Assembly: GCA_016707005.1 (NCBI GenBank) | Contig: JADJIQ010000002.1 | Span: 741,527-805,526 of the forward strand | Direction of reading: 5' to 3' | Origin: Ignavibacteria bacterium | GTDB lineage: Bacteria; Bacteroidota; Ignavibacteria; Kapaibacteriales; Kapaibacteriaceae | Length of the DNA: 64,000 bases | Part shown: positions 6,056-54,074 of the stretch, one piece after another | Layout of the letters: the number at the start of each line of letters is the position of its first letter | Numbering within the stretch: the first letter of the stretch is position 1 | Notes under the pieces: generated by a model | The model's input: the letters and a program-made list of their open reading frames with translations, nothing else | Database searches by the model: none | Told to the model about the DNA's origin: nothing | Translations under genes and position numbers: made by a program

Positions 6056-7423
6056 TTATCGGGTGAGATCGAGATAGAAAACAAAGGCCATGAGGATCAG
6101 CAAGAGTGCGATACCAACTTGCTGGAAGCGGATCTTCACGTTGGTAGAGATCTCTCTGCGGATCACGGCTTCGATACCAACAAAGACAAGGTGTCCGCCG
6201 TCAAGTCCCGGAAGCGGGAGGAGGTTCATCACACCAAGGGAGATCGAGATCAAGGCCATGAACCTGAGGAAGGCCTCGAGTCCAAGGTCAGAGCTGCGGG
6301 AGGCCATCTTTGCGATCTGGATCGGTCCGCCAAAACTCTGCTTCACAGATACAGTACCGCGGAAGACGTGTGTGACCGAGGTGCCGATCATCGCGATGGT
6401 GTTTCCCGTCTCACTCACGGCCATGGTCAATGATTCGAAGACGGCAAAAGTCTCGGTCTTGCGCGGACCAACGTAGGAACCTTCAAGCTGAACACCGATC
6501 GTCGAGTCCGATCCAACGGTAAGGTTCACCGGCATTGGCGTTCCGTTTCGCTCAACATGGAGCGTGATCGGCTTTGATGCATGGGCGCGTACATAGCGCT
6601 GGAACTGAGGGAGAGCACGCACGGGCATGGAGTCTACGGCCAGCACAACATCTCCGGCCTGCACTCCGGCACGTCCGGCAGGCGACAGAGTAACCACACC
6701 ACCGAACACGATCTTCATGTCCGAAGGGTACAGTCCCAAGCCCTGTCCGGCAGCCATCGAACGAACAAGGTCTGCACTTGCAAGCTCGATCGTCCGAGTA
6801 ACACCCTCGCGTTGTACAACCACCTTCCGCATACCGGTGTTGGTTGAGAGACCGAGTTGTTCGGCACAATCTTCCCAAGTAGACACTGCAACACCATCAA
6901 CGGATATCACCTTGTCGCCGGAAGCGAATCCAGATGCAGCAACGGTTGAGGTTGGGTCGACCCATGCGATCTTCGTTGTGGCCATTTCTTCGTGACCATA
7001 GAAGAGCGGCAAGAGCCAGAACACGACGATGGCCAACAAGAAATTCATGATCACGCCGGCACTGAGGACGATGGCCTTCTGCCAATTCTTCTTAGAACGG
7101 AACTCATAGGGTTCGGCCGGACGTCCCGCGAAGTCGGTATCCATGGACTCATCCACCATACCGAGGATCTTCACATATCCGCCGATCGGTAGGGCGCACA
7201 GTCGATAGTCCGTACCGCCGTCGAGCTCTAGGTCTGCGGGGAGTTTGCCAAACGAGAAGCCCGTCTTGGGATTCCATCCCATCACACGCGGACCCATCCC
7301 GATGGCGAAGACATCTGCGCGCATCCCCGTCCAACGAGCCGCAAGGAAGTGCCCAAGCTCGTGAATGAAGACGAGGACGCCGATGACGATGATAAAGGCA
7401 ATTGTTGGCTGTAGAAATTCCAT
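6056..7423 (-). CDS. rseP: RIP zinc metalloprotease RseP (site-2 protease)
   Basis: HELGHFLAARWTG zinc motif near N-terminus, PDZ region, C-terminal LDGG motif; start moved to internal ATG (MEFLQPTIAFIIV...) 6 nt downstream of dxr stop; longer ORF to 7549 would overlap dxr. Confidence 0.8.
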   Translation of the reverse strand: MEFLQPTIAFIIVIGVLVFIHELGHFLAARWTGMRADVFAIGMGPRVMGWNPKTGFSFGKLPADLELDGGTDYRLCALPIGGYVKILGMVDESMDTDFAGRPAEPYEFRSKKNWQKAIVLSAGVIMNFLLAIVVFWLLPLFYGHEEMATTKIAWVDPTSTVAASGFASGDKVISVDGVAVSTWEDCAEQLGLSTNTGMRKVVVQREGVTRTIELASADLVRSMAAGQGLGLYPSDMKIVFGGVVTLSPAGRAGVQAGDVVLAVDSMPVRALPQFQRYVRAHASKPITLHVERNGTPMPVNLTVGSDSTIGVQLEGSYVGPRKTETFAVFESLTMAVSETGNTIAMIGTSVTHVFRGTVSVKQSFGGPIQIAKMASRSSDLGLEAFLRFMALISISLGVMNLLPLPGLDGGHLVFVGIEAVIRREISTNVKIRFQQVGIALLLILMAFVFYLDLTR

Positions 7424-10205: not shown

Positions 10206-10343
10206 TAAAAAATACAGCCAAGTTGACCGTGGCGCCTTGTACGCATGCTGACCGTTGCTTCCTTCCGGACCTGGCGGGATTGGGCTTGGTACAATCGCAC
10301 GGGACTTGGCCGTGTTGTTCTCATTGCTTGAACCACAAATATA

Positions 10344-11627
10344 CTAGGGTTTTCTGAATTCCGGCACTAAACCTTGCCAGCATTCCCAATAATCGTTTTG
10401 CAGTTCACCGGTTGTCATGGCAAATGCTGTTGGTCTCGACACAAATCGTGTTTCGAACATGAAGGCCATTGTCTCTTCCAGTTTCACCGGCTTGAGTTCC
10501 ACTTCCGTCATGCGCTTGTAGGTATCTGCATCCGGACCATGTCCGCTCATACAATTGTGCAGCGACGATCCGCCCGGAACAAAGCCTCCGCCTTCCTTGG
10601 CATCATAGACGCCGTGGATAAGCCCCATAAACTCATTCATGAAGTTTCTGTGGAACCATGGCGGTCTGAAGGTGTTCTCTGCAACCATCCAGCGTGGCGG
10701 GAAGATCGCAAAATCAATATTGGCTGTTCCTGGCGTATCGCTTGGCGATGTGAGTACCGTATAGATCGATGGATCCGGGTGATCGAACGTGACAGTGTTG
10801 ATACACTGGAACTTGCGAAGATCATACTTGTACGGTGCATAGTTCCCGTGCCATGCCACCACATTCAACGGTGAGTGATCGTAGATGCCTTTCCAGAGAT
10901 TCCCCTGGAACTTCGTGATGACCTCAAACTCTCCCGTTCGCTCTTCATACCAAGCTTCCGGGATCAGGAAGTCGCGAGGATAGGCCAAACCATTCGCACC
11001 GATCGGACCAAGATCCGGGAGTCGGAAAGGGGCTCCATAGTTCTCGATCATATACCCGCGAACCGGACCGTTCACTTCAACACGGAACTTCACGCCGCGC
11101 GGAATAACGCAGATCTCCTGAGGCTCAACGTCAACAATACCCATCTCCGTCAGGATTCTGAGCGACCCCAGTTGCGGCACGATAAGCAGCTCACCATCCG
11201 CATTGTAGAAGAACGTATCCGTCATGGACGTGTTGGCCGCATACACATGGATCGCCGATCCCGAATGTGTAGTGAGGTCTCCCCCACCAGCCATCGTTGC
11301 GATACCCTGAAGCCACGTTGTTGGCGCTGTTGGGAGCGGTAAGGGGCTCCAACGCAACTGATTTGGCGTTGTCTCTACTTCATTGAAGGGCGTAGAGCGG
11401 ATAAGTCCGTTGTCGATACGCTCGTATGGGCGATGCACAACGCTCGGACGAATACGGTACATCCACGACCGCTTGTTTGCAGACCGCGGTGCGGTAAACG
11501 CCGTACCATTGATCTGCTCAACGTACAACCCCAATGGCGGTTTCTGCGGAGAATTCTGCCCTTCCGGCAGTGCCCCCTTTACCGCCTCCGTTGCTACGTC
11601 ATTGCCGAAGCCGCTCATGTAGCCCAT
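10344..11627 (-). CDS. hmgA: homogentisate 1,2-dioxygenase
   Basis: [45 protein letters not shown] matches HGD N-terminus; ORF-track start at 11639 is GTG, first ATG at 11627. Confidence 0.85.
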
Positions 11628-11660
11628 TCCAGACCTCACTGAAGAACAACAACTATTCTG

Positions 11661-11734
11661 CGCGCCCAGCAGGATTCGAACCTGCGGCCCGCAGCTTAGA
11701 AGGCTGCTGCTCTATCCAACTGAGCTATGGGCGC
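11661..11734 (-). tRNA. tRNA-Arg (anticodon TCT)
   Basis: Cloverleaf on minus strand: GCGCCCATAGCTCAGTTGGATAGAGCAGCAGCCTTCTAAGCTGCGGGCCGCAGGTTCGAATCCTGCTGGGCGCG; anticodon loop CTTCTAA; GTTCGAATC T-loop. Confidence 0.85.
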
Positions 11735-11744
11735 AACACACGAA

Positions 11745-11880
11745 GTTACGGAGTTACGGAGTTACGGAGTTACGCAGTTACAGAGTTACGGGGTTACAGG
11801 GTTACGGGGTTACTCTAGCACTCAAACACTCTAGCAATCTCATTAGCACATTAACACACTAGCACATTAGCACATTAACT
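11745..11880. repeat. composite tandem-repeat array: GTTACGGA x about 8 followed by degenerate TAGCACTC / ATTAGCAC units
   Basis: Direct reading: gttacggagttacggagttacggagttacgcagttacagagttacggggttacagggttacggggttact then ctagcactc...ctctagcaatctcattagcacattaacacactagcacattagcacattaact; begins 10 nt from tRNA 5' end. Confidence 0.75.
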
Positions 11881-12123
11881 CGGGACTATCTCAAACGAAC
11901 TCAGCGCTTCGTCGATCACCAGGCGGACGGGGCCGTGCGGGGTAGGGAGGAGGTCGGGGTCTCCGTTTTCACCGCCGGAGAGGAAATGGGACTCTCTACG
12001 TATGTCAGACAGCCAGGCATAGAGGTCCGCGGACACTGCAACCTCCCGGGGTGCCTGTCCGTGTTCATCTACGTACCGTTCGATGGAGGCCATCAGCTCC
12101 TCGAAAGCATCGAACCATTCCAT
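11875..12123 (-). CDS. hypothetical small protein (82 aa)
   Basis: ORF only; stop codon lies inside the repeat (attaact); divergent from rpsA. Confidence 0.35.
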   Translation of the reverse strand: MEWFDAFEELMASIERYVDEHGQAPREVAVSADLYAWLSDIRRESHFLSGGENGDPDLLPTPHGPVRLVIDEALSSFEIVPS

Positions 12124-12190
12124 TTGAGCCTCACTTTCCGTGATCTGTCCGTTCCCATTGATAACAGGAAAAGTCGTGCCAAAGTTACAC

Positions 12191-12218
12191 TTGGGGATAA
12201 AAAATATTCCGTATTTTG
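12191..12218 (+). promoter_or_regulatory. putative Bacteroidota-type sigma-A promoter of rpsA (TTG ... 18 nt ... TATTTTG)
   Basis: ttggggataaaaaatattccgTATTTTG about 98 nt upstream of rpsA ATG; matches -33 TTG / -7 TAnnTTTG consensus known for Bacteroidota. Confidence 0.3.
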
Positions 12219-12315
12219 GCTGTCTTCCCCGGGCCCCAACTTTGTTGCACTATCCCTAATAGGGTCAACACGATGGCGGAGGGCCGCGCCAGCGAGTTGA
12301 CAAGGAGTTTACAAT

Positions 12316-14166
12316 ATGTCGGAACAAAACACGGGCGCAACAGAAGACATCTCTATGGAGACGGTCGCTGCTGCCTCGGAACAACCAGCACAATCAGTCC
12401 TCGGAGAACGCTCAACCAAGCGGTCGGCAATCGCCGCACTGCTCGGCGGAGAACTCGACGGCTCAGCTATGAATGATGCAGCGTTCCTTCAGCTGTTCGA
12501 CACCAAGGTGTCTACGCTCAAGGCAGACGATCTCGTTCACGGTACAGTGGTTTCGGTCACCAAGGACGAGATCCTTGTTGATATCGGTTTCAAGTCTCTC
12601 GGCGTTGTCCCACGCGCTGAATTCGTAGGCGCCGAACTTCTTGCCCCAGGCGAGACAGTAGACGTCTTCGTTGAGAAGATCGAAGACGGCGAAGGCCGCC
12701 TGATGCTCAGCCGCCGTCGCGCTGACTTCATGAAGACATGGGAAGAGATCCTCAAGCTTGCAGAAACGCAAACAGTCACTCCGGTTCGCATCCTTCGCCG
12801 CATCAAGGGCGGTATGGTTGTAGATCTTCTCGGGATCGAAGCGTTTCTTCCTGGCTCGCAGATCGACGTTCGTCCGGTACGCGACTTCGATGCATGGGTA
12901 GGCCGCACGATCGACGTACGCGTCGTGAAGGTTAACCACCCAAGTGAGAACGTTGTTGTCTCCCACAAGGTCCTCCTCGAAGAGCAACTCACGGAACAAC
13001 GCGGCAAGATCCTCGAACTGCTCGAAAAGGGTCTCGTTCTCGAAGGTACCGTCAAGGCAATCTCGGACTTCGGTGTATTCGTCGACCTCGGCGGCGTGGA
13101 CGGCCTCGTTCACATCACAGACCTTTCGTGGGGCCGCGTAGCTCATCCGAGCGAGATCGTTCAACTCGACCAACAGGTCAAGGTTGTTGTTCTCGATTTC
13201 GACGAGAACCGCAAGCGCATTTCCCTTGGCATGAAGCAGCTCACGTCGCACCCATGGGACCAGATCGGCGAGAAGTACGAGCCGGGCACAAAGGTTCGCG
13301 GAAAGGTTGTCTCCCTTACGGACTACGGTGCATTCATCGAGATCGAAAAGGGCGTGGAAGGCCTCATCCACATCAGCGAAATGAGCTGGACGCAACACGT
13401 CAAGCACCCATCACAAGTGGTTTCGCTTGGTCAAATGGTTGACGCCGTTGTCCTCAACATCGATAAGGGCGATCGCAAGCTTGCCCTCGGCATGAAGCAA
13501 CTCGAGCCGGATCCATGGAACGATCTCATGGCCAAGTATCCTATCGGATCGGTCCATAAGGGTGAAGTTCGCAACCTGACGAACTTCGGCGTCTTCATCG
13601 AACTCGAACCAGGCGTTGATGGCCTCGTGCACATCAGTGACCTCTCGTGGACGAAGAAGATCCGTCACCCGGGTGAGTTCGTGAAGAAGGGCGACAGCAT
13701 TCAAGTTGTTGTTCTTGCCGTCGATAACGAGCATCGTCGTATCTCCCTTGGTCACAAGCAGATCAGCGAAAACCCATGGGATGTGTTTGAAGGTGAATTC
13801 GGCGTTGGTACTGAGACAGAAGGCAAGATCGTCCGTCTCATCGACAAGGGTGTCATCGTCGAAATGCCGCAAGGCGTAGATGGCTTCGTCCCTGTCTCCC
13901 AACTCTCCTTCGCTCCTGTCCGCGTCATCGCCGACTTCTTCAACGTTGGAGACAATCTCCCGTTGAAGGTTGTTGAGTTCGACAAGGAACAGAAGAAGAT
14001 CGTTCTCTCTGTAGTTGAATACCTCCGCGCACGCGGCGACGAAGAAGTGGCGAAGTATAACGCCAACCATCCCGTCCCGAATGCCGACAAGTACAACGCA
14101 GATGGATCGGCCAACGCAAACACAACGATCGAAGACCTGGAAGACAGCGAACCGATCGCAGAATAA
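12316..14166 (+). CDS. rpsA: 30S ribosomal protein S1
   Basis: Six consecutive S1 RNA-binding domains (e.g. GTVVSVTKDEILVDIGFK, GTVKAISDFGVFVDLGG, GKVVSLTDYGAFIEIEKG). Confidence 0.9.
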   Translation: MSEQNTGATEDISMETVAAASEQPAQSVLGERSTKRSAIAALLGGELDGSAMNDAAFLQLFDTKVSTLKADDLVHGTVVSVTKDEILVDIGFKSLGVVPRAEFVGAELLAPGETVDVFVEKIEDGEGRLMLSRRRADFMKTWEEILKLAETQTVTPVRILRRIKGGMVVDLLGIEAFLPGSQIDVRPVRDFDAWVGRTIDVRVVKVNHPSENVVVSHKVLLEEQLTEQRGKILELLEKGLVLEGTVKAISDFGVFVDLGGVDGLVHITDLSWGRVAHPSEIVQLDQQVKVVVLDFDENRKRISLGMKQLTSHPWDQIGEKYEPGTKVRGKVVSLTDYGAFIEIEKGVEGLIHISEMSWTQHVKHPSQVVSLGQMVDAVVLNIDKGDRKLALGMKQLEPDPWNDLMAKYPIGSVHKGEVRNLTNFGVFIELEPGVDGLVHISDLSWTKKIRHPGEFVKKGDSIQVVVLAVDNEHRRISLGHKQISENPWDVFEGEFGVGTETEGKIVRLIDKGVIVEMPQGVDGFVPVSQLSFAPVRVIADFFNVGDNLPLKVVEFDKEQKKIVLSVVEYLRARGDEEVAKYNANHPVPNADKYNADGSANANTTIEDLEDSEPIAE

Positions 14167-14239: not shown

Positions 14240-15538
14240 ATGGACCTGAAACCCATTCTTGATGAATTGTTCGCGATGACGTTCCATGCCGGCATCAGAC
14301 CCGGCTTGGAGCGCATCACGGAGCTGTGCTCGCACCTTGATGAACCACATCTGCGCTATCCCGTCATCCACGTTGCCGGCACAAATGGCAAGGGCTCTAC
14401 CTGCTCCATGTTAGCCTCGATCCTCACCCACGCCGGGTACAAGGTTGGCCTCTACACCTCGCCGCACATCAGGCAGTTCAACGAACGTATTCGCATCAAC
14501 GGTACAATGATCTCCGATGAGGACGTGGCTCGTCTGGCTCGCCCCTTAATGGACCAGGCAAAGTCGTTCGGTGGAACGTTCTTTGAGGTCACCACAGCAA
14601 TGGCATTCCAATACTTTGCCGAGCGCAGAGTTGAGGTTGCGATCATTGAGACGGGGCTTGGCGGACGTTTTGATGCAACGAACATCGTACAGCCATTCCT
14701 GAGCATCATCACGCAGATCGATATCGACCACACGGAATACCTCGGCACAACACTTCCGCAGATCGCCGGCGAAAAGGCCGGGATCATCAAACAGGGGGCT
14801 CCTGTCGTGATCGGACATCGTTCCGGCATTGTGGTAAATGGACGGCCCGTTCCCGACATCCGAGATGTCTTCGTTCGTAAGGCAGAGTCCGCCAATACTC
14901 CGATCTCGTTCGCAGAAGACACGATCTATGTGGAAATGGATGCGATCCACCCCGACCTTACGATGACGGTGAGTGTTACGAATGACGCGGATCGCAAGTA
15001 CTACACAACCGACCTCTGTGGTCAGCATCAAACGAGCAACATCGCCACAGTGATCGCTGCCCTGCCGGCCATCAGTGAACTGTACTTCGTCGAAGAGCCA
15101 CACATACGAGAAGGACTGCTTCGCGTGAAGTCAACCTCTGGACTTTACGGACGATGCGACCTCATCAATGTAGATCCTTTCACAGTGATCGATGTATCGC
15201 ACAATCCCGGAGGCATTGCTGCCCTGCGAGACACGCTCATCGCCTCCGGCAAAACGCCGAACAGCATGCAGGTGGTCTTTGGTGCGATGTCCGATAAGGA
15301 CGTGGCTGGTATGATCGACGCCATCGCCCCGCTTGCACACACCCTACACCTATGCTCTCCTGCTCTCCCGCGCGCCCTTGCTGTGGAAGAGCTCCTCAAC
15401 CTGGCCCTGTCACGAGGCATCATGAACGCCGTAGCCCATTCGAGCGTGGCTCACGCCTACAAGGCAGCAATAGCTCATGGCCCAACCGTTGTGTGCGGGA
15501 GTTTCCATGTGATCGATGAAGTCATGCTAATGTGCTAA
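14240..15538 (+). CDS. folC: folylpolyglutamate synthase / dihydrofolate synthase
   Basis: P-loop VIHVAGTNGKGST, Mur-ligase family body; start moved to ATG at 14240 (MDLKPILDELF) right after terminator; last 4 codons and TAA stop lie inside ATGTGCTA repeat. Confidence 0.8.
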   Translation: MDLKPILDELFAMTFHAGIRPGLERITELCSHLDEPHLRYPVIHVAGTNGKGSTCSMLASILTHAGYKVGLYTSPHIRQFNERIRINGTMISDEDVARLARPLMDQAKSFGGTFFEVTTAMAFQYFAERRVEVAIIETGLGGRFDATNIVQPFLSIITQIDIDHTEYLGTTLPQIAGEKAGIIKQGAPVVIGHRSGIVVNGRPVPDIRDVFVRKAESANTPISFAEDTIYVEMDAIHPDLTMTVSVTNDADRKYYTTDLCGQHQTSNIATVIAALPAISELYFVEEPHIREGLLRVKSTSGLYGRCDLINVDPFTVIDVSHNPGGIAALRDTLIASGKTPNSMQVVFGAMSDKDVAGMIDAIAPLAHTLHLCSPALPRALAVEELLNLALSRGIMNAVAHSSVAHAYKAAIAHGPTVVCGSFHVIDEVMLMC

Positions 15539-15880
15539 TGTGCTAATGTGCTAATGTGCTAATGTGCTAATGTGCTAATGTGCTAATGTGCTAATGTGCT
15601 AATGTGCTAATGTGCTAATGTGCTAATGTGCTAATGTGCTAATGTGCTAATGTGCTAATGTGCTAATGTGCTAATGTGCTAATGTGCTAATGTGCTAATG
15701 TGCTAATGTGCTAATGTGCTAATGTGCTAATGTGCTAATGTGCTAATGTGCTAATGTGCTAATGTGCTAATGTGCTAATGTGCTAATGTGCTAATGTGCT
15801 AATGTGCTAATTTCGTGTATTAGCTCGTTAGCTAATTAGCACATTAGCACATTAGCACATTAGCACATTAGCACATTAAC
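15524..15880. repeat. foldback tandem array: ATGTGCTA x about 36 (15524-15810), 22-bp spacer, inverted ACATTAGC x 5 (15833-15880)
   Basis: Direct reading; right arm is exact reverse complement unit of left arm; array ends on the base before purH ATG. Confidence 0.9.
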
Positions 15881-17404
15881 ATGACCGCCCTCCTCTCCGT
15901 CTCCGACAAAACCGGCATACTTGAACTGGCTCGTGAACTTCATGGTTTAGGGGTTCGAATCATTTCTACAGGAGGCACGGCGAAGGCCATTGCCGATGCC
16001 GGCATTCCGGTGACAAAGGTTGCAGATATCACGGGATTCCCGGAGATCATGGATGGCAGAGTGAAGACGTTGCATCCGAAGATCCATGGCGGACTCCTTG
16101 CTGTGATGGATAATGAGGAACATCTGCGCCAAATGCATGAGCACGGCATTGAGAAGATCGACCTTGTGTTTGTGAATCTCTATCCGTTCGAGCAGACCGT
16201 TGCTCGAGAGGGGGCTTCGTACGACGAGATCATTGAGAACATCGACATCGGCGGTCCGGCCATGGTGCGCGCTTCTGCGAAGAATCATCGATTCACAACG
16301 ATCGTTGTCAACCCGGCACACTACAACACAGTGATCGATCATCTGCGATCGAACAATGAAGTGCCCCTTTCATTCCGACAACAACTGGCAATGGAAGCGT
16401 ACTCCCACACAGCTCATTACGACGCCTGTATTTCAGAGTACTTTGCCAAACACTTGCACTCTGGCTTTTTGTCGGAGACCGCAGTGCCATTACGTGCCGA
16501 TCAGCACCTACGGTATGGAGAGAATCCGCATCAGACCGCAATGCTGTACGGATCGTTCACAACGATCTTCCGTCAGCTCCACGGCAAAGAACTTTCCTAC
16601 AACAACATTCTCGATATCGATGCCGCATCAAAGCTGTGCCTTGAATTCGATGAGCCCACGGTTGTGATCGTCAAGCACAACAATCCATGTGGTGTTGGTT
16701 CCGGCAACGACCTGGTAGATGCCTATCGCAAGGCCTTTGCAACAGATACAGTGAGCCCGTTTGGAGGGATCATCGCCGTGAATCGCACGGTGGATCTCGC
16801 CTATGCCAACGAGGTACACTCTCTCTTTGCCGAGGTGATCATCGCACCTTCCTTCGATGAAGATGCGCTTGCAGTACTTACCAAGAAGAAGGATCGCCGC
16901 CTGATGGTGGTGGACACAGCAAAGCTTCGATCATCACTTGCGATGGATCTTCGGTCTGTTGCAGGGGGCTATCTGGCACAACACACGGATTCGATCCTCT
17001 TCAATGAGGCAGACCTTCGTGTTGTTACAGCACAGACACCAACGGACGAACAACGTCAAGCAATGCTCTACGCATGGAAGATCGCAAAACACGTTAAGAG
17101 CAATGCCATAGTGTATGCATCGCATGACCGCTCACTGGCCATTGGTGCCGGACAGATGTCGCGCATCGATTCCGCACGCATCGCTGTTCGCAAGGCGCAG
17201 GATGCCAGCATCGACCTGACGGGTTGCGCTGTTGCCTCTGACGCATTCTTCCCGTTCGCCGACGGATTGCTGCAGGCGGCAGAAGCCGGCGCATCATGCG
17301 TGATCCAGCCCGGCGGTTCGGTTCGCGATGAAGAAGTGATCGCAGCCGCCAACGAGAAGGGGCTTTCTATGATGTTCACCGGGACACGTCACTTCCGACA
17401 TTAA
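15881..17404 (+). CDS. purH: bifunctional AICAR transformylase / IMP cyclohydrolase
   Basis: MGS-like N-domain ([30 protein letters not shown]) and AICARFT domain; 507 aa. Confidence 0.9.
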
Positions 17405-25043: not shown

Positions 25044-26536
25044 GCCTCCCAACAACGATCGGCGAGCTGAAGGCAGCAGGATATCAATACGAGTCTGTGA
25101 AGGACGAGCTACGTCGCAACGTGATCGAACGACTGCGAACCAACACGCCCATCTTCTCCGGCATCATCGGATTCGATGACACCGTGATACCGCAGATCGT
25201 GAACGCCATTCTTGCAAAGCACGATATTCTCTTGCTCGGTCTACGCGGTCAGGCAAAGACGCGCATCGCACGTCAACTCACCACGCTACTCGACGAATTC
25301 ATCCCTGTTGTCAAGGGCTCCGAGATCAACGATCATCCGTTGCGCCCCGTGTCCTACCAGGCCGTGCAGCTCGTTGCCGAACACGGAGATGCTACACCGA
25401 TCGAATGGCGTCCGCGCGAGGAACGCTATGGCGAGAAGCTTGCAACTCCAGACGTTAGTGTGGCCGACCTCATCGGAGACATCGATCCGATCAAGGCTGC
25501 CTCGCAACGTCTGCATTATGCACATGAGGGCGCCATCCACTTTGGGATCATTCCGCGCTCCAACCGAGGCATCTTTGTCATCAACGAAGTACCCGATCTT
25601 CAGCCTCGCATTCAAGTAGCGTTGTTCAACATTCTACAAGAGCGCGATATTCAGATAAGGGGCTTTAATGTTCGCCTCCCGATGGACATCGTGATGGTGT
25701 TCACGGCCAACCCTGAAGACTACACCAATCGTGGATCCATCGTTACGCCACTTAAGGACCGCATTCAGTCGCAGATCCTCACGCACTATCCGCGCAGCAT
25801 CGAAGACGGCATGGCCATCACTGCACAAGAATCATGGGTTGAGCGCTCGGGAATGCCCCTTATCATCCCTACGTATCTCAGCCAGGTTGTTGAGTCCGTT
25901 GCCATGATCGCTCGCACGAGCGAATACATCGATCAAACCAGCGGCGTTAGTGCGCGACTCACCATCTCCACGATGGAGAACATGGTCTCCAATGCCGAAC
26001 GTCGCGCCTACATCACCGGCGAGATGATCGTAGCCCCCCGACTCTGCGACCTTGGTCAGGCACTTGCAGGCATCACCGGCAAGGTGGAACTCGTCTTTGA
26101 GGGCGAAGAAGAAGGACCGCAGAAGGTTGCACGAGCACTCATCGGCAAGGCCGTGCGCGAGGTCTTCCGTCTTTCCATGCCTGATCCGAATGTGCGCAGA
26201 GCTCGTAAGGGAACTGCTGAAGAGAAACCCGATCCCTATCAGGCCATCGTCCGGTGGTTCGAACAAGGTCACGTTGTGAACATCGATGACCGAATGACAA
26301 ACGAGGAATTCTACAACGCCCTCATCGCCGTCCCCACACTCGCTCAGCTCGCATCCGTCTCGTTCCATGTAGAGACGTCAGACACTATTCGTCTAGCAAC
26401 CGCTATGGAATTCATTCTGGATGCACTGCATCAACATTCCAAGCTTGCAAAAGACGACAACAGCATGCAGACCACGTACAGAGATCTGGTGGGAAGCATT
26501 TTTACGCCGCCTTTGTCGATGACAGAGGACGAATAG
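25040..26536 (+). CDS. AAA+ ATPase, Mg-chelatase/Lon-related N-domain-like (no protease domain)
   Basis: ATG overlaps ribE stop (ATGA); Walker A LLLGLRGQAKTRIARQL, Walker B GIFVINEVPDL, sensor region; architecture resembles N-terminal ATPase part of the Lon-related protein at 17425; stop TAG is first triplet of the TAGTTAC array. Confidence 0.5.
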   Translation: MSLPTTIGELKAAGYQYESVKDELRRNVIERLRTNTPIFSGIIGFDDTVIPQIVNAILAKHDILLLGLRGQAKTRIARQLTTLLDEFIPVVKGSEINDHPLRPVSYQAVQLVAEHGDATPIEWRPREERYGEKLATPDVSVADLIGDIDPIKAASQRLHYAHEGAIHFGIIPRSNRGIFVINEVPDLQPRIQVALFNILQERDIQIRGFNVRLPMDIVMVFTANPEDYTNRGSIVTPLKDRIQSQILTHYPRSIEDGMAITAQESWVERSGMPLIIPTYLSQVVESVAMIARTSEYIDQTSGVSARLTISTMENMVSNAERRAYITGEMIVAPRLCDLGQALAGITGKVELVFEGEEEGPQKVARALIGKAVREVFRLSMPDPNVRRARKGTAEEKPDPYQAIVRWFEQGHVVNIDDRMTNEEFYNALIAVPTLAQLASVSFHVETSDTIRLATAMEFILDALHQHSKLAKDDNSMQTTYRDLVGSIFTPPLSMTEDE

Positions 26537-26627
26537 TTACTAGTTACTGGTTACTAGTTACTAGTTACTGGTTACTGGTTACTAGTTACTAGTTACTGGT
26601 TACTAGTTACTGGTTACTATTTACTAG
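26534..26627. repeat. tandem array TAGTTAC / TGGTTAC x about 13 (left arm of 4HB cassette 1)
   Basis: Direct reading tagttactagttactggttactagttac... Confidence 0.85.
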
Positions 26628-26691
26628 GTCTGGCGAAGGAGAAGTTTATTGAGGCGTGTCACGTACTGACGTGTTGAGAGCACGTAGCAGG

Positions 26692-27090
26692 ATGGGTCAT
26701 GAACGAGATATCATAAAAGAGCGACTTGTCGCTAGTCCACTGCACATCCTTTCAATCGAGTTTTCTCGAGAGGTGCGCAGTCTTGTACGGAAGGCATTCC
26801 AACATCAGGTTGTTGAGCGAATGCCACTTGATCAACTGTATCGTTCGGGGTCCTCGGTTGGAGCGAATATCCGTGAGAGCAGATATGCAGAATCTCCAAA
26901 GGACTTTGTACATAAGCTCAAGATCGCGGAGAAAGAGCTGGGTGAATTCTTCTATTGGATTGGATTGCTGTCGTCGAAACACGACATTTTTGATGAAGAC
27001 GCTGCCGCTGCCTGCGTCAACAAAGGCACACAAGTCCAAAAGCTACTTTCTTCGATCATTGTAACAACGAAACGCAACAACAGTTTGTAA
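26692..27090 (+). CDS. four-helix-bundle protein (TIGR02436 / 23S rRNA intervening-sequence protein family)
   Basis: Family core ...VVERMPLDQLYRSGSSVGANIRESRYAESPKDFVHKLKIAEKELGEFFYWIGLL; first ATG at 26692 (ORF-track start 26656 is GTG). Confidence 0.65.
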   Translation: MGHERDIIKERLVASPLHILSIEFSREVRSLVRKAFQHQVVERMPLDQLYRSGSSVGANIRESRYAESPKDFVHKLKIAEKELGEFFYWIGLLSSKHDIFDEDAAAACVNKGTQVQKLLSSIIVTTKRNNSL

Positions 27091-27123
27091 TCTCTTACGA
27101 ATTGCAATTCAACGAGGTATGGT

Positions 27124-27152
27124 GTAACTAGTAACTAGAAACTAGTAACTAG
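27124..27152. repeat. inverted array GTAACTA x 4 (right arm of 4HB cassette 1)
   Basis: gtaactagtaactagaaactagtaactag = reverse complement of left-arm unit; ends 2 nt before stop codon of convergent peptidase gene. Confidence 0.85.
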
Positions 27153-32255: not shown

Positions 32256-32389
32256 GCTTTTTAAGCGCCTTTGTAAGCGCCTTCTTCAAGCGCCTTTGTA
32301 AGCGCCTTTGTAAGCGCCTTCTTCAAGCGCCTTTGTAAGCGCCTTTGTAAGCGCCTTTGTAAGCGCCTTCTTCAAGCGCCTTTGTAAGC
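32256..32389. repeat. tandem array of 12/13-bp units AAGCGCCTTTGT / AAGCGCCTTCTTC x about 10 (left arm of 4HB cassette 2)
   Basis: Direct reading. Confidence 0.85.
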
Positions 32390-32440
32390 TGAGTCACGTT
32401 TAAGGGTTGTGAGAGTACGAAGAGGTTTTAGGGGAACCCT

Positions 32441-32899
32441 ATGTCTCTTCTTCAACTCCGCATGTATAAACGGGCCGGCGAGATCTCTGATGAGGTTGCT
32501 CTGTTTGCAAGTGCATGGCCGCACATCCATCGGAACACGATCGGAGATCAGATCATTAGAGCGGCGGATTCGATCTCAAACAACATTGCTGAAGGGTATG
32601 GCAGAACAGCAACAGGAGAACGCATCCAGTTTCTGATGTATGCCGATGGCTCGATCTCAGAAACAAGAAACTGTCTACATAGAGCATTCGGCCGGAACCT
32701 CATCGACGCAGACACCAACGCTCGACTTCAACAGCGCCTCGTATCATTGTCGATTAGTATCGTAGAGTTCGCACATGCTATAATTGAAAGAGACCCATCA
32801 TACAAGGGTCCATTCCGCGAACGAATCGCAAAACGCCGCGCCTGGCTTGTGAAGAAGCTCGCCAAGAACGGCGCAGCTCCCCCAAACGAACAATCTTAA
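32441..32899 (+). CDS. four-helix-bundle protein (TIGR02436 / 23S rRNA intervening-sequence protein family)
   Basis: Canonical family motif ...IIRAADSISNNIAEGYGRTATGERIQFLMYADGSISETRNCLHRAF...; ATG start; 152 aa. Confidence 0.8.
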   Translation: MSLLQLRMYKRAGEISDEVALFASAWPHIHRNTIGDQIIRAADSISNNIAEGYGRTATGERIQFLMYADGSISETRNCLHRAFGRNLIDADTNARLQQRLVSLSISIVEFAHAIIERDPSYKGPFRERIAKRRAWLVKKLAKNGAAPPNEQS

Positions 32900-33160
32900 A
32901 GAAGGCGCTTGCAGAAGGCGCTTGCAGAAGGCGCTTGAATAAGGCGCTTGAATAAGGCGCTTGAACAATGCGCTTGAACAAGGCGCTTGAACAAGGCGCT
33001 TGAACAAGGCGCTTGAACAAGGCGCTTGAACAAGGCGCTTGAACAAGGCGCTTAACGAAGGCGCTTAGAGAAGGCGCTTGAACAAGGCGCTTAGAGAAGG
33101 CGCTTGAACAAGGCGCTTGAACAAGGCGCTTAACGAAGGCGCTTGCAGAAGGCGCTTACA
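32900..33160. repeat. inverted tandem array of 13-bp units (A/G)AAGGCGCTTGAAC and variants x about 20 (right arm of 4HB cassette 2)
   Basis: Reverse complement GTTCAAGCGCCTT matches left-arm unit family; last unit overlaps the pcrA stop codon (cttaca). Confidence 0.85.
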
Positions 33161-47808: not shown

Positions 47809-48593
47809 TGCGCCTCGCTACCGTACAGTTCTGTCCCGCGTACAGAGATCCGGATGCCAATACCGACTTCATTGTGGAGACCATTGCCAGTACTGAAGCG
47901 GACGTCATCGTCTTTCCCGAACTCGCCACCAGCGGATATTTCTTTGTCACCCGCGAAGAAGTAGGGGGCATTGCAGAGCCCCTTACCGGACCTCATATCA
48001 CCCGCATCATCAACGCTGCAAAAACTCACGGTCGCATAGTGATCTGCGGTTTTGCTGAGCGTGATGGAGACCGTCTCTTCAACTCAGCGGTGATTGCCGG
48101 ACCGAACATCGAAACACAGGTCTATCGCAAAACGCATCTGTTCTACAAGGAGACGCTGTGTTTTGACGAGGGCGATAGCGGTTTCTCCGTTGTTCATCTA
48201 CCCCATCTCGATTGCAATCTCGGCGTGATGATCTGCTACGACTGGCGTTTTCCTGAAAGTGCCCGGACCCTTGCACTCAAGGGAGCTGACGTGATCGCCT
48301 GCCCATCAAACCTCGTCACCCACATCTGGCGCATGGCCATGCCCGTACGCGCCCTCGAGAACAAGGTCTACCTGGCAGTGGCCAACCGCTACGGCACAGA
48401 ATCCAACACCGAAGAAGACGTCACCTTCAACGGCCAAAGCGTGATCTACTCCTACAACGGAGACGTACTGGCAAGCGCCGATGCAGTTGGCACAACCACA
48501 CTCATCACCGAGATCGACCCCACCGCCACCCGCAACAAGACATTCAATTCTGTTAATGACATCCTTGCCGATCGCCGCCCAGAGAGATACTAG
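47805..48593 (+). CDS. carbon-nitrogen hydrolase (nitrilase superfamily)
   Basis: Glu in FPELATSGY, Lys, Cys in ICYDWRFPE; ATGA overlap with PAP2 gene; stop TAG is first triplet of the downstream repeat. Confidence 0.8.
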   Translation: MMRLATVQFCPAYRDPDANTDFIVETIASTEADVIVFPELATSGYFFVTREEVGGIAEPLTGPHITRIINAAKTHGRIVICGFAERDGDRLFNSAVIAGPNIETQVYRKTHLFYKETLCFDEGDSGFSVVHLPHLDCNLGVMICYDWRFPESARTLALKGADVIACPSNLVTHIWRMAMPVRALENKVYLAVANRYGTESNTEEDVTFNGQSVIYSYNGDVLASADAVGTTTLITEIDPTATRNKTFNSVNDILADRRPERY

Positions 48594-48717
48594 TTACTGG
48601 TTACTAGTTACTGGTTACTAGTTACTTGTAACTGGTAACTGGTAACTACTAACTAGTAACTAGTAACTAGTAACTGGCAACTAGTAACTAGTACTTAGTA
48701 ACTAGTAACTTGCAACT
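48591..48717. repeat. foldback tandem array: TAGTTAC/TGGTTAC x 5 then inverted TNGTAAC x about 13, no cargo
   Basis: Direct reading; centre at about 48626; ends on base before murC ATG; same unit family as array at 26534. Confidence 0.9.
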
Positions 48718-50085
48718 ATGACGTTTTCCTCCGTTCGACACATCCACTTCGTTGGCATTGGTGGCATTGGCATGAGCGGGATCGCCGAGATCCTTCTTTC
48801 GCAGGGGTTTGTTGTCAGTGGCTCAGACCTTAACCGAAGTGAAGTAACGGACCACCTTGCAACTCTTGGGGCGCGCATCTGCATTGGGCATGATGCACAA
48901 CACGTAGATAACGCCGAGGTAGTGGTCTACTCCAGTGCCGTTCGTCCACAGGAGAACCCCGAGACGTTGTTCGCCTTGGAGCGCAAGATCCCGATCATCC
49001 GTCGGGCAGAGATGCTCAGCGAGGTCTCCCGACTGAAGTATTGTCTGGCCATTGCCGGCACTCACGGCAAGACAACCACCACGTCCATGTGTGGCATCGT
49101 GATGATGAAGGCTGGCATGGACCCAACGGTCATTGTTGGCGGACGTCTCAAGGGACTTGGTGGCACGAATGCCCGGCTTGGACAGGGCGACTGGATCGTA
49201 CTCGAGGCCGATGAATACGACCGTTCCTTCCTCCAGCTCTTGCCCACCATTGCTGTGATCACGAATGTAGAGGCGGATCACCTTGACATCTATAGTGACC
49301 TCGACGATATAAAGGGGGCGTTCATCGAGTTCTCAAACAAGGTGCCGTTCTATGGCACTGCAGTGGTCTGCTTAGATGATCCGGGCGTGCGCGCCATCCT
49401 GCCGTCCATCAAACGGGTGGTTGTCACCTACGGCATGTCTGCGCAGTGTGATGTGCGCGCTGCAGACATCAGCTACAACGAACGCTCCTCCACCTATACA
49501 CTCGTACACAAGGGGAGCCCCCTTGGAGAGATCGAGCTTCACGTACCGGGTGACCACAACGTCCGCAATTCCCTTGCTGCTTGCGCAACTGCTCTTTTGT
49601 GCGGTGTTCCGTTCGATGTGATCAGGGATGGTCTTGCAGAGTTCGGAGGCGTGTTCCGTCGGTTCGAAGTCAAGGGAGAGGTAGGGGGCATCCTGGTCGT
49701 AGACGACTATGCCCACCACCCTACCGAGATCCGCTCAACGCTCACCGCGGCCCGACGTGGTTGGAAGCGTCGGATCGTTGCCGTGTTCCAGCCGCACACC
49801 TATACCCGAACCAGGGATTTCTACGCCGAGTTCGCCACTTCCTTTGACGAGGCCGATGTTTTGATCCTCACAGACGTTTATCCGGCACGCGAAGAGCCAA
49901 TTCCGGGGGTCAATGGGAAGCTTATCGCGGACGCTGCCAGGGATGCCGGACACCGCAACGTGCACTATGTAGAAGCGCCTGCAGACATCCCGGCACTGCT
50001 CAAGACCCTGGTTTTGGAGGGCGATATGGTGCTCACAATGGGTGCCGGAGATATATGGAAAGTAGGGTCGGCACTGCTCGCCTGA
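48718..50085 (+). CDS. murC: UDP-N-acetylmuramate--L-alanine ligase
   Basis: HFVGIGGIGMSGIAEIL and Mur ligase motifs. Confidence 0.9.
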   Translation: MTFSSVRHIHFVGIGGIGMSGIAEILLSQGFVVSGSDLNRSEVTDHLATLGARICIGHDAQHVDNAEVVVYSSAVRPQENPETLFALERKIPIIRRAEMLSEVSRLKYCLAIAGTHGKTTTTSMCGIVMMKAGMDPTVIVGGRLKGLGGTNARLGQGDWIVLEADEYDRSFLQLLPTIAVITNVEADHLDIYSDLDDIKGAFIEFSNKVPFYGTAVVCLDDPGVRAILPSIKRVVVTYGMSAQCDVRAADISYNERSSTYTLVHKGSPLGEIELHVPGDHNVRNSLAACATALLCGVPFDVIRDGLAEFGGVFRRFEVKGEVGGILVVDDYAHHPTEIRSTLTAARRGWKRRIVAVFQPHTYTRTRDFYAEFATSFDEADVLILTDVYPAREEPIPGVNGKLIADAARDAGHRNVHYVEAPADIPALLKTLVLEGDMVLTMGAGDIWKVGSALLA

Positions 50086-52288: not shown

Positions 52289-53577
52289 AAAGCCCCATGC
52301 GCACACTCAACATCTTCTTCATGTGCCTCCTTGTACTTGGCATCCCTACCTCTGTTTGGGCCCAAGACTCCATGGAAGGTATCATTGCCATCGTTGGTCG
52401 TGAGATCGTTCTCAAGTCCGATGTAGACGGTCAGATGGAGATGTTGGCCCAGCGTGATCCGCGCGTAGACCGCAAGGACGTCAAACTGCGTCAAGCAATC
52501 CTCGATCAGCTCATCAACGAGCGCCTCATCATGACCAAGGCCATAGAGGACAGCATTGAGGTAACAGATGAAGAGATCACGCAGCGCATGGAATATCAGA
52601 TCCAAACACTGATCCAGCAATTCGGCTCAGAGAAGCGTATCGAAGACATGTACGGCATGAGCATGATGCGCATCCGACGTGAATTCCGCGATGAGATCCG
52701 CAAACGTCTTCTCGTGGAGAAGATGCAACAGAAGCAATTCGGTCAGGTCAAGGCCTCCCGTGCAGATGTGGAAGCGTTCTACGCCAAATACCGCGACTCC
52801 TTGCCTAAGGTACCGGAACGTGTAGACCTCTTCCACATCGTGAAGTACGTGAAGGCCTCCGACGAAAAGAACAAGGAAGCATACACCCTTGCCATGCGTA
52901 TCAGAGACTCCATCGTAAAAGGGGGCTCCTTCAGCGACTTCGCACGCAGGTATTCCGGAGATCCGATCTCTGCATCGAACGGTGGCGACCTCGGAACCGT
53001 TGATCGCGGCAAATTTGTCCCGGCTTTCGAAACCGCTGCATTCAACCTGTCCCCTGATGAGATCTCTCAACCAGTCGAGACGCCGTTCGGATGGCACGTT
53101 ATTCAGCTCATCAGCAAGACAGCAACCTCGATGACTGCGCGACACATCCTCATTCGCGTAGGTCAGAGCGACGAAGACCGAGAACGCGTTAAGACCGAAC
53201 TCGTTGCACTCAAACAACGTGTTGAAAAGGGCGAGAACTTTGAGACACTCGCTCGTGAATTCAGTGATGAAAAAGAGACCCAAGGCTTCGGTGGATCAAT
53301 GGGTCAGATCGAACTCGCCCGTCTTCCGGAAGAGATGCAAACATCTCTCAATGCCATGAAGGACGGTGCTGTCTCCGACCCTTCACCGTATGCCGCAGAC
53401 CCAACTAAGCCCGGCTTCCACATCCTCTACCGCAAGCGCATCATCCCTGCTCACACCCCGTCCGTCGACGAAGACTACAAACAACTCGAACAAATGGCAT
53501 CCTTCGAAAAGAAGCAACGCCTCGAACAAGAGTGGGTGCAGAAGCTGCGGAAAGAGTTGTATTGGGAAACGCGTTAG
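52285..53577 (+). CDS. surA: SurA-type chaperone / peptidyl-prolyl isomerase
   Basis: Signal peptide MKSPMRTLNIFFMCLLVLGIPTSVWAQ; SurA N-domain plus two parvulin domains (FGWHVIQLI, GFHILYRK); ATGA overlap; stop TAG is in the repeat. Confidence 0.75.
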   Translation: MKSPMRTLNIFFMCLLVLGIPTSVWAQDSMEGIIAIVGREIVLKSDVDGQMEMLAQRDPRVDRKDVKLRQAILDQLINERLIMTKAIEDSIEVTDEEITQRMEYQIQTLIQQFGSEKRIEDMYGMSMMRIRREFRDEIRKRLLVEKMQQKQFGQVKASRADVEAFYAKYRDSLPKVPERVDLFHIVKYVKASDEKNKEAYTLAMRIRDSIVKGGSFSDFARRYSGDPISASNGGDLGTVDRGKFVPAFETAAFNLSPDEISQPVETPFGWHVIQLISKTATSMTARHILIRVGQSDEDRERVKTELVALKQRVEKGENFETLAREFSDEKETQGFGGSMGQIELARLPEEMQTSLNAMKDGAVSDPSPYAADPTKPGFHILYRKRIIPAHTPSVDEDYKQLEQMASFEKKQRLEQEWVQKLRKELYWETR

Positions 53578-53618
53578 AGTGCTAGAGTGCTAGATTGTTA
53601 GAGTGCTAGATTGTTAGA
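53573..53618. repeat. tandem array of units TAGAGTGCTAGATTGT x about 3 (arm of 4HB cassette 3)
   Basis: gttagagtgctagagtgctagattgttagagtgctagattgttag. Confidence 0.85.
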
Positions 53619-53621
53619 CCC

Positions 53622-53990
53622 TCATCTGGTTTTTGGGGGTCGTTGTTGATTGCGAACTGCGGTAGATATAGACGAACTCATCAGCCGTCCAAGCTCATCA
53701 AGAAGACCATCGATCGTTTGTTTCCATGAGCTTGGCACTCCATTTCTTTCGGTGAAATGGATAGAGAGAGATTCGGCTTCTCGTAACTCCTTATGAGCAA
53801 GCTTCAGTTTGTGTATGAGGTCTCGCCGACTTTGGCAGCTCTGCGCTTCAGAGATGTTATTCATGACAGCTAGGGCGACACCCTCCGTCTGATTTCCAAG
53901 ACGAAACAGATGTTGACTGTTTACGATCCTCACAACTTCTAACAGATAGATCGATAACAGACGCGATTTTATCATTGATGGGGACGTCAT
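53622..53990 (-). CDS. four-helix-bundle protein (TIGR02436-like, divergent)
   Basis: ...NSQHLFRLGNQTEGVALAVMNNISEAQSCQSRRDLIHKLKLAHKELREAESL aligns with the NIAEG...F..L.IA.GS..E motif region of the other two copies; track start 54032 is a GTG inside the repeat, first ATG at 53990. Confidence 0.55.
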   Translation of the reverse strand: MTSPSMIKSRLLSIYLLEVVRIVNSQHLFRLGNQTEGVALAVMNNISEAQSCQSRRDLIHKLKLAHKELREAESLSIHFTERNGVPSSWKQTIDGLLDELGRLMSSSISTAVRNQQRPPKTR

Positions 53991-54024
53991 CCTTCTATGT
54001 GCTACTAACACCACAGAACGTGAC

Positions 54025-54068
54025 TCTAGCACTCTAACAATCTAGCACTCTAACAATCTAGCACTCTA
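54025..54068. repeat. inverted array CTCTAGCACTCTAACAAT x about 2.5 (other arm of 4HB cassette 3)
   Basis: Exact reverse complement of 53573 array unit; ends 6 nt before stop of OMP gene. Confidence 0.85.
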
Positions 54069-54074
54069 TCGAGA

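Follow-up and report, generated by a model that had tools for sequence, protein, structure and literature searches.

The window analysed here is a stretch of 64,000 nucleotides (nt) from the genome of an Ignavibacteria bacterium (assembly GCA_016707005.1, contig JADJIQ010000002.1, positions 741,527 to 805,526), and the element in question is a composite array of short tandem repeats at the 5' side of a tRNA-Arg gene. The tRNA gene, with anticodon TCT, occupies 11660-11734 on the minus strand (ARAGORN; Rfam RF00005, 73.4 bits). Upstream of it, the segment 11740-11877 is the complete intergenic spacer between the stop codon of a small open reading frame (ORF), here called ORF82, and the putative promoter box of tRNA-Arg(UCU). 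The spacer consists of three abutting blocks of 8-nt tandem repeats, for which Tandem Repeats Finder (TRF) returned a period of 8 and copy numbers of 9.2, 3.6 and 4.6. Read in the sense of the tRNA, the composite runs from the stop codon through a TAATGTGC block (block B), a TAGAGTGC block (block C) and a GTAACNCC block (block E) to the tRNA itself.

Anatomy of the composite array

Block E, at 11745-11811 on the minus strand, comprises eight full units and a partial one, of the form GTAACTCC/GTAACCCC in the tRNA sense and GTTACGGA on the plus strand. An initial annotation, made from the sequence, had described an eightfold unit beginning 10 nt from the tRNA 5' end, and this is what is present: the plus strand of 11745-11811 reads three copies of GTTACGGA followed by GTTACGCA, GTTACAGA, GTTACGGG, GTTACAGG, GTTACGGG and a partial GTTAC, and 10 nt separate the first unit from the tRNA. 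Along 11777-11811 the same strand displays runs of GGGG or GGG at 8-nt spacing, with more such runs in the strain denoted L172 (at about 650-720). Block C (11812-11840, minus strand) contains approximately 3.6 units of the TAGAGTGC type in the tRNA sense or the ACTCTAGC type on the plus strand, also described as CTCTAGCA-type, and its plus-strand sequence is ACTCTAGCACTCAAACACTCTAGCAATCT. Block B (11841-11877, minus strand) contains approximately 4.6 units, of the TAATGTGC type in the tRNA sense and the CATTAGCA type on the plus strand. The initial annotation correctly placed the stop codon of a small gene inside the array; the TAA of ORF82 (complement of 11875-11877) falls within the last CATTAAC unit, which is the first unit of block B in the tRNA sense.

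The units of block E are near-copies of the 8 nt that hold the putative promoter box. This box, TAACTTCG (11741-11748, minus strand; -14 to -7 counted from the 5' end of the mature tRNA), is a putative -7 element and forms the last, degenerate unit of block E, a one-base variant of the perfect unit TAACTCCG. The array is thus bounded at both ends, all of it lying between the ORF82 stop codon and the -7 box. In 20 of 22 species a TAnnTTnn box stands at -13 to -17 relative to the 5' end of the mature tRNA; in position and form it would correspond to the '-7' promoter element of Bacteroidetes (Bacteroidota), whose consensus is TAnnTTTG. On both strands of the window TAnnTTTG occurs 10 times, against approximately 31 occurrences expected from length, and those that were checked all lie upstream of genes; such scarcity would be expected if a promoter motif were avoided within genes. 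A TAnnTTTG box is also seen about 32 nt upstream of the bacterial small signal recognition particle (SRP) RNA, which lies between hgmA and the RNase G gene (10213-10311, minus strand; Rfam 63.8 bits).

ORF82 (11875-12123, minus strand) encodes a protein of 82 amino acids (aa) that is conserved at 42-95% identity by tblastn and syntenic in loci L007-L030. Since it is both conserved and syntenic in more than 20 related genomes, it is a real gene; the exact protein is found on 23 contigs, mostly from activated-sludge genome assemblies, and searches of Pfam and NCBIfam returned no family match. The wider neighbourhood is also conserved, the gene order purH-folC-S1-ORF82-tRNA-Arg-hgmA-rng being kept across the clade in more than 20 genomes, with hgmA adjoining tRNA-Arg in 21 related genomes. 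The relatives recovered by a search with the neighbouring homogentisate dioxygenase (HgmA) are labelled Ignavibacteria, Kapaibacterium or Melioribacter; the host itself is Ignavibacteria/Kapaibacterium-like.

Folding of the RNA of the composite gave no significant structure (z=-1.1), and no inverted partner was found within the 1.6 kb of 11000-12600, so that a hairpin arm pair for the composite can be ruled out over that interval. A scan of 11600-12350 for sigma-70 promoters and intrinsic terminators returned nothing, the sigma-70 consensus being probably the wrong one for the host phylum. At gathering thresholds, Rfam models identified only the tRNA and the SRP RNA in the whole window, and no rRNA. 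A reading of block E as a Rho-utilisation site, which would be C-rich and G-poor, was dropped because blocks B and C, and most of the arrays of relatives, are not C-rich.

Shared unit families and PF05635 cassettes

The initial annotation proposed that the composite holds units of two other array families in the window, and suggested alignment against shuffled sequence as the means of judging this. We aligned the blocks to the other arrays with 500 dinucleotide shuffles and 500 random genomic segments as controls. Block C (11812-11840) scores 18-20 when aligned with the arrays at 53573-53618 and 54023-54068, the maxima being 16 for shuffles and 18 for random segments, with no control at the observed score. 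Block B (segment 11841-11880) aligns with the array at 15525-15878 with a score of 31; the maxima are 17 among shuffles and 8 among random segments, and none of the controls reaches 31. Within the window, CTAGCACTC occurs only in the composite and in the 53573 and 54023 arrays. Both families are therefore represented in the composite with scores above all 500 shuffles, and the mosaic of unit families that recur at other sites is well beyond chance by either control. For block E the connection is made through orthology: in the sister species L007 and L008 the orthologous block is GTAACTA/GTAACTG, the family found in the window at 26534, 27124 and 48589 (TRF period 7 at each), and it follows that all three blocks of the composite belong to families that are used elsewhere.

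Short-period repeats of this kind invite the objection that they are chance low-complexity sequence or a product of assembly, given that assemblers can collapse or expand them. The arrays probably break short-read assemblies. An array of AGTTACGG, the block E unit, was found at a different locus (7309-7336) in L017, a species with 85% HgmA identity, where the contig ends inside it. However, the composite is identical base for base in six further independent assemblies and so is not an assembly artefact; TRF detects 11 short-period arrays (1,190 bp) in the 64-kb window and none in 20 locally shuffled versions; and the family scores given above, together with the orthologous layout in other species described below, speak against chance. 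We regard this explanation as having practically no likelihood.

The composite belongs to a genome in which the gaps between genes are crowded with tandem arrays whose units are 7-13 nt long. All 11 arrays in the window lie between ORFs and most are the complementary arms of stem-loops, three pairs of which surround genes of the PF05635 family; no arrays occur in the 10 kb to the left of the window, which shows that array density is patchy. PF05635/TIGR02436 is the family of 23S-rRNA-intervening-sequence or four-helix-bundle proteins. The window has three genes of this family, every one enclosed by inverted arrays, whose units measure 7 nt in the first, 12-13 nt in the second and 8 nt in the third; each of these cassettes is situated between convergent genes. 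The first, of the GTAACT family (26534-27152, plus strand), has its PF05635 gene (26656-27090) between TAGTTAC x13 and GTAACTA x4. The second (32257-33157) has its gene at 32441-32899 between AAGGCGCTTGAAC-type arrays of 12-13-nt units. The third carries family C (53573-54068, minus strand), with a PF05635 gene at 53622-54032 (Pfam E=3.8e-11) between inverted TAGAGTGC/ACTCTAGC arrays; when 53565-54075 is folded the arms pair, forming a stem of about 40 bp around the ORF (z=-5.9). Exact-sequence look-up of the protein encoded at 53622-54032, with two alternative starts, found neither translation on record, and the cassette, located through a neighbouring gene, is present in four other public assemblies of the same species, yet without its gene having been called.

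Two further stem-loops have no ORF and fill their gaps completely. That of family B (15525-15878) has TGCTAATG in 36 perfect copies and then CATTAGCA, inverted, in 7.5 copies, and extends from a folC-like stop codon to 3 nt short of the purH start codon. The other, of the GTAACT family (48589-48718), has TAGTTAC followed by GTAACTA and reaches from the stop codon of the upstream gene to a murC-like ATG; folding of 48585-48720 gives -65.8 kcal/mol (z=-7.8). This hairpin array ends in ...GTAACTTGCAACTATG, with a TAnnTTnn-like box 13 nt before the murC-like ATG, and the transcript from such a box could be leaderless.

Arrays begin at, or a few nt from, the stop codons of flanking genes and have a consistent orientation, as judged from approximately nine junctions in this one window. 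Along the flanking gene, TAATGTGC, TAGAGTGC and TAGTTAC follow stop codons, the stop codon lying mostly within the first unit, and the complementary forms CATTAGCA and GTAACTA precede start codons. In the composite, blocks B and C are of the 'after-stop' type and block E is of the 'before-start' type, all from different families, and for this reason the blocks cannot pair and there is no stem.

The association of PF05635 genes with arrays extends to metagenomes. We scanned metagenomic contigs using an alignment of a three-protein PF05635 subfamily, which produced 80 loci and a result whose generality is limited to that subfamily and to relatives at 39-56% identity. A short-period array lies within 350 nt of the PF05635 gene in 65 of the 80 loci, and arrays occur on both sides, mostly as reverse complements, in 29 of the 58 loci with sufficient flank on two sides. 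Array density is 2.44 per kb near the PF05635 gene and 0.42 per kb farther away, a 5.8-fold difference. Of 125 nearby arrays, 94 have a period of 8 nt in spite of differing unit sequences, and arrays distant from the PF05635 gene share the unit of the cassette in 61% of cases, compared with 26% between contigs. In these loci (L087-L166), which come from many environments, upstream arms are often purine-rich and resemble Shine-Dalgarno sequences (TAGAGGAT, AGAGGATT), and downstream arms are CCTCC-like. Inverted 8-nt arrays thus commonly flank PF05635 genes in metagenomic loci. A literature search for PF05635 or S23p proteins together with tandem or inverted repeats, with most subscription journals outside its coverage, found a note on heptamers in Coxiella and no published description of this arrangement.

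Turnover of the spacer and its interpretation

The 260 nt upstream of tRNA-Arg were compared in 21 related species. The sister species L007 and L008, in which HgmA is 96% identical, have the same three-block order with altered units. Their first block reads TGCTAGTG/TGCTAATG in L008 and is of the GTTAGANT type in L007, a middle block of the AGAGTGCT/AGATTGTT type is clear in L008 only, and the tRNA-proximal block is the GTAACTG/GTAACTA block mentioned above. Repeated insertion, excision or recombination had been put forward as a source of the mosaic, and a templating relationship between array families as another; the layout shared with sister species indicates instead that the composite is old and has been evolving in place, and is not a record of recent serial insertions. 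The outgroups L009, L011 and L012 have no array, and before the tRNA they have a single CCGTAACTTTCG (...TCCTCCGTAACTTTCG...); L023 and L027 likewise have no array in the spacer. In other species the spacer contains arrays of unrelated units (GTAATTCNA, AAACCCA, GGAACCT, CAGCGAA with GTCATTG, GTAATCA, CTAATTCATT and GGCACNT). Altogether, the gap between ORF82 and the tRNA carries arrays in approximately 12 of the 21 related species, with at least seven unrelated unit types, a recurrence that is unmatched by any other gap in the 13-kb neighbourhood. In L013, L015, L016 and L087 a PF05635 gene is found between inverted heptamer arrays, positioned exactly from the ORF82 stop codon to tRNA-Arg, and in L018 the spacer has an 'empty' hairpin array (GATTACG / GTAATCA) with no ORF. 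The CCCAAAA/GGTTTTG arrays of L013 and L087 have a telomere-like appearance.

The comparison of the tRNA-Arg flank, which the initial annotation had recommended, thereby identifies a recurrent site of array growth. The spacer can be called a hotspot in that arrays, and now and then a cassette, arise in it, though not one of the kind that integrases create. Integration into tRNA genes is well known, and integrases target or duplicate the 3' part of the tRNA. The repeats might accordingly be taken for att scars, left by phages or genomic islands at tRNA-Arg, and the hypervariability of the spacer across the clade would suit such an origin. Yet the array lies 5' of the tRNA gene, on its promoter side, and neither tRNA-derived sequence nor a duplicate of the tRNA 3' part is found in it; no integrase or island genes occur at the locus, whose flanks (hgmA, rng, S1, folC, purH) are housekeeping genes in conserved order in more than 20 genomes; and a tRNA adjoins only 3 of the 80 metagenomic PF05635/array loci, a count on which tRNA adjacency was also rejected as a general rule for the cassettes. 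Integration directed at the tRNA is close to refuted. Of the initial interpretation, support exists for the mosaic of recurring unit families, for recurrent array growth in this gap, for the presence of a PF05635 cassette there in L013, L015, L016 and L087 and, as a hint, for exchange between arrays; integration of the integrase type is not supported.

Strains L001-L006, which are 98.6-99.98% identical over 20 kb, have a composite identical to that of the window, and among these same strains the folC-purH gap measures between 94 and 366 nt, a variation present even at 99% identity or more to the window, one strain having 5.5+6.9 copies where the window has 36+7.5. Strain L172 (99.04% identity) has three extra block E units (24 nt) and several unit substitutions in block E, with one substitution across blocks B and C together. 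Units are therefore gained, lost and replaced in place at both species and strain level. Whole-unit gain and loss that increases with the perfection of the repeat is the signature of slipped-strand mispairing. Exchange between loci is suggested by unit preference, the window having mostly TAATGTGC and L008 mostly TAGTGTGC, in each case at both the tRNA and the purH sites; this is a hint that arrays are homogenised or exchanged. At the purH site, L008 and several outgroups have a 1.3-kb gene between purH and folC, which in L008 encodes a PAS and UbiA-like protein of 418 aa and is flanked by one B arm and one C arm; the window is without this gene, and its two arms abut there. Strain L004 has approximately 540 nt inserted (16835-17377) between surE and a methyltransferase gene; the insertion contains two small uncharacterised ORFs and no arrays, and was ruled out as array-related.

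We consider it reasonably probable, at roughly 60%, that the composite is a tolerated and fast-evolving 'orphan-arm' spacer that is functional at its two ends, with an interior made by slippage and kept similar to other arrays by recombination. Units would be gained and lost through slipped-strand mispairing, and block E may have grown by iteration of the 8 nt containing the tRNA's own -7-type promoter box, an origin that the single CCGTAACTTTCG in outgroups would fit. Recombination or gene conversion may keep blocks B and C similar to arrays elsewhere. Function would most likely reside in the TAA of the first B unit and in TAACTTCG as the last E unit, the interior being tolerated.

Several points weigh against this reading. 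The identification of TAACTTCG as the -7 box of the tRNA-Arg promoter is probable, being drawn from analogy with Bacteroidetes and from positional conservation, and the array shows no -33 TTTG element. When only alignment scores are considered, block E resembles the GTAACTA arrays no more than marginally, 23 of 500 shuffles scoring at least as high. Gene conversion between arrays is suggested by sequence at two loci in two genomes, and the same block order in three species could reflect function instead of shared ancestry. Finally, the occupation of the same spacer by a PF05635 cassette in L013, L015, L016 and L087 makes it possible that blocks B and C were cassette-derived.

This last point leads to a distinct history, in which one or more cassettes resembling the intervening sequences (IVS) of rRNA genes lost their gene and one arm at this site, or recombined in and out of it, leaving the B and C arms beside block E. 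L013, L015, L016 and L087 hold a cassette in precisely this position, where L018 shows an empty hairpin array; a PF05635 gene of the window genome lies between family C arms; the purH site has abutting arms where L008 retains a gene between its B and C arms; and metagenomic arrays at a distance from the cassette share its units more often than arrays on different contigs do (61% against 26%). On the other hand, there is neither a remnant of a PF05635 ORF nor a complementary arm at the composite, L007 and L008 are equally without the ORF so that any loss would be old, cassettes elsewhere are stable from strain to strain, and the cassettes of L013, L015 and L016 have unrelated units (of the GGTTTTG type). 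We think such a footprint unlikely, while giving it some weight.

A different reading makes the composite a regulatory array that acts in trans. Its units might bind cognate multimeric PF05635 proteins or another factor, or pair with other transcripts, and so place tRNA-Arg(UCU) or ORF82 under multi-input control. The 5.8-fold enrichment of arrays at PF05635 genes, with a conserved period of 8 nt and a variable sequence, is as expected of a protein and its site, and the S23p homologue of Xanthomonas is a homopentamer, according to work cited in PMC4990558. The composite also unites all three short-unit families of the window directly upstream of the promoter box, and its block order is kept in three species. 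Against this, unit sequences turn over fast, even between strains; the absence of arrays in L009, L011, L012, L023 and L027 means that no array is needed for expression of the tRNA; and public annotations do not even include the PF05635 gene at 53622-54032. We judge regulation of this kind improbable, and more so than the cassette footprint.

A broader proposition is that PF05635 genes flanked by inverted arrays of 8-nt units may be widespread and undescribed IVS-like stem-loop cassettes between ordinary genes, and that each genome may have a private repertoire of unit families, which the cassettes or the proteins they encode spread or homogenise. In that case arms from three families would meet in the composite, making it either a record of cassette traffic or a multi-input site at which cassette proteins affect tRNA-Arg(UCU) expression. 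We offer this tentatively, and consider it unlikely though of some weight.

Taken by itself, the composite is a modest curiosity, a hypervariable repeat spacer before a tRNA. Its wider significance is that the shared families tie intergenic short tandem repeats to an equally unexplained family of proteins, that of the intervening sequences of 23S rRNA, and if the metagenomic link holds it supplies a route to learning what PF05635 proteins do. There may also be a practical application, since arrays differ between near-identical strains and probably break assemblies, and so could serve as strain markers for Kapaibacteria in activated sludge.

Comparison with known repeat systems

Short tandemly repeated repetitive (STRR) sequences are known in heterocystous cyanobacteria. 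The window arrays resemble these and TAACTGA-type repeats in having short 7-8-nt, AT-leaning units with a TAACT core (here TAACTAG, TAACTGG and TAACTCCG), which are arranged as tandem direct repeats with several copies per set and related units mixed, and are strictly intergenic. Intergenic heptamer arrays of the TAACTGA type abut start codons and vary between strains by indels in steps of 7 nt, and they occur in Beggiatoaceae, Cyanobacteria and Bacteroidetes (MacGregor 2015, PMC4679880). There, 'forward' arrays end a few nt from the start codon, as the purH and murC-like starts abut arrays here, and whole-unit indels between strains and absence from some close relatives have their counterparts in the additional 24 nt of L172 and the arrays missing from L009, L011 and L012. 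Both types are found in Bacteroidetes-related lineages. The exact TAACTGA unit does not recur, no TAACTGATAACTGA being present in any locus examined, and only the TAACT core is common to the two.

The differences are those of unit, pairing and position. Units in the window are mostly of 8 nt and several unrelated families coexist; the arrays are mostly paired as long inverted arms that flank PF05635 genes, and one precedes a tRNA gene. By comparison, PMC4679880 reports only one indirect repeat, in the BOGUAY genome, describes no PF05635 genes and no inverted pairing as a rule, and mentions tRNA only in the name of a tRNA-ligase gene. An array before a tRNA gene disfavours a purely translational role. 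The re-use by one lineage of a few 7-8-nt families at many intergenic sites, in consistent orientation, should make the STRR/TAACTGA puzzle more tractable.

The IVS of 23S rRNA (Coxiella, Leptospira, Salmonella) are the second point of reference. In Coxiella, the S23p ORF lies in a stem that is cut by RNase III, at the first repeat of the tandem GACAGAT heptamers that precede it, and the number of heptamers varies between strains (PMC4990558). The three PF05635 genes of the window similarly lie between inverted repeats that form a long, ORF-enclosing stem. All three cassettes (genes at 26656, 32441 and 53622) have the PF05635 gene characteristic of an IVS and a stable stem is found at 53565-54075, and in the composite, blocks C and E are made of units from families that also form cassette arms. 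In contrast to 23S rRNA IVS, these elements are placed between protein-coding genes, in a window with no rRNA, and their arms are composed wholly of tandem units; the composite, moreover, has no PF05635 ORF (ORF82 only), forms no stem and is not in rRNA. It is therefore at most a relative of IVS arms and not itself an IVS.

Two other systems offer partial parallels. Like the repetitive extragenic palindromic (REP) sequences and bacterial interspersed mosaic elements (BIME) of enterobacteria, the window arrays are dispersed and family-structured intergenic hairpin repeats, often at convergent or co-directional junctions and absent from coding sequence. But REPs are single imperfect palindromes of approximately 35 nt that are mobilised by REP-associated tyrosine transposases (RAYTs), whereas the arms in the window are built of 7-13-nt units in tandem, and no RAYT was seen. 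With the contingency loci formed by simple sequence repeats (SSR), the composite has in common a copy number that changes between strains by slippage and a position next to a promoter element; it differs in lying upstream of the -7 box, outside both the promoter spacer and the reading frame, with imperfect units and no evident on/off logic. The composite is thus linked to the known intergenic short tandem repeats, and the new aspect is their tie to PF05635 stem-loop cassettes.

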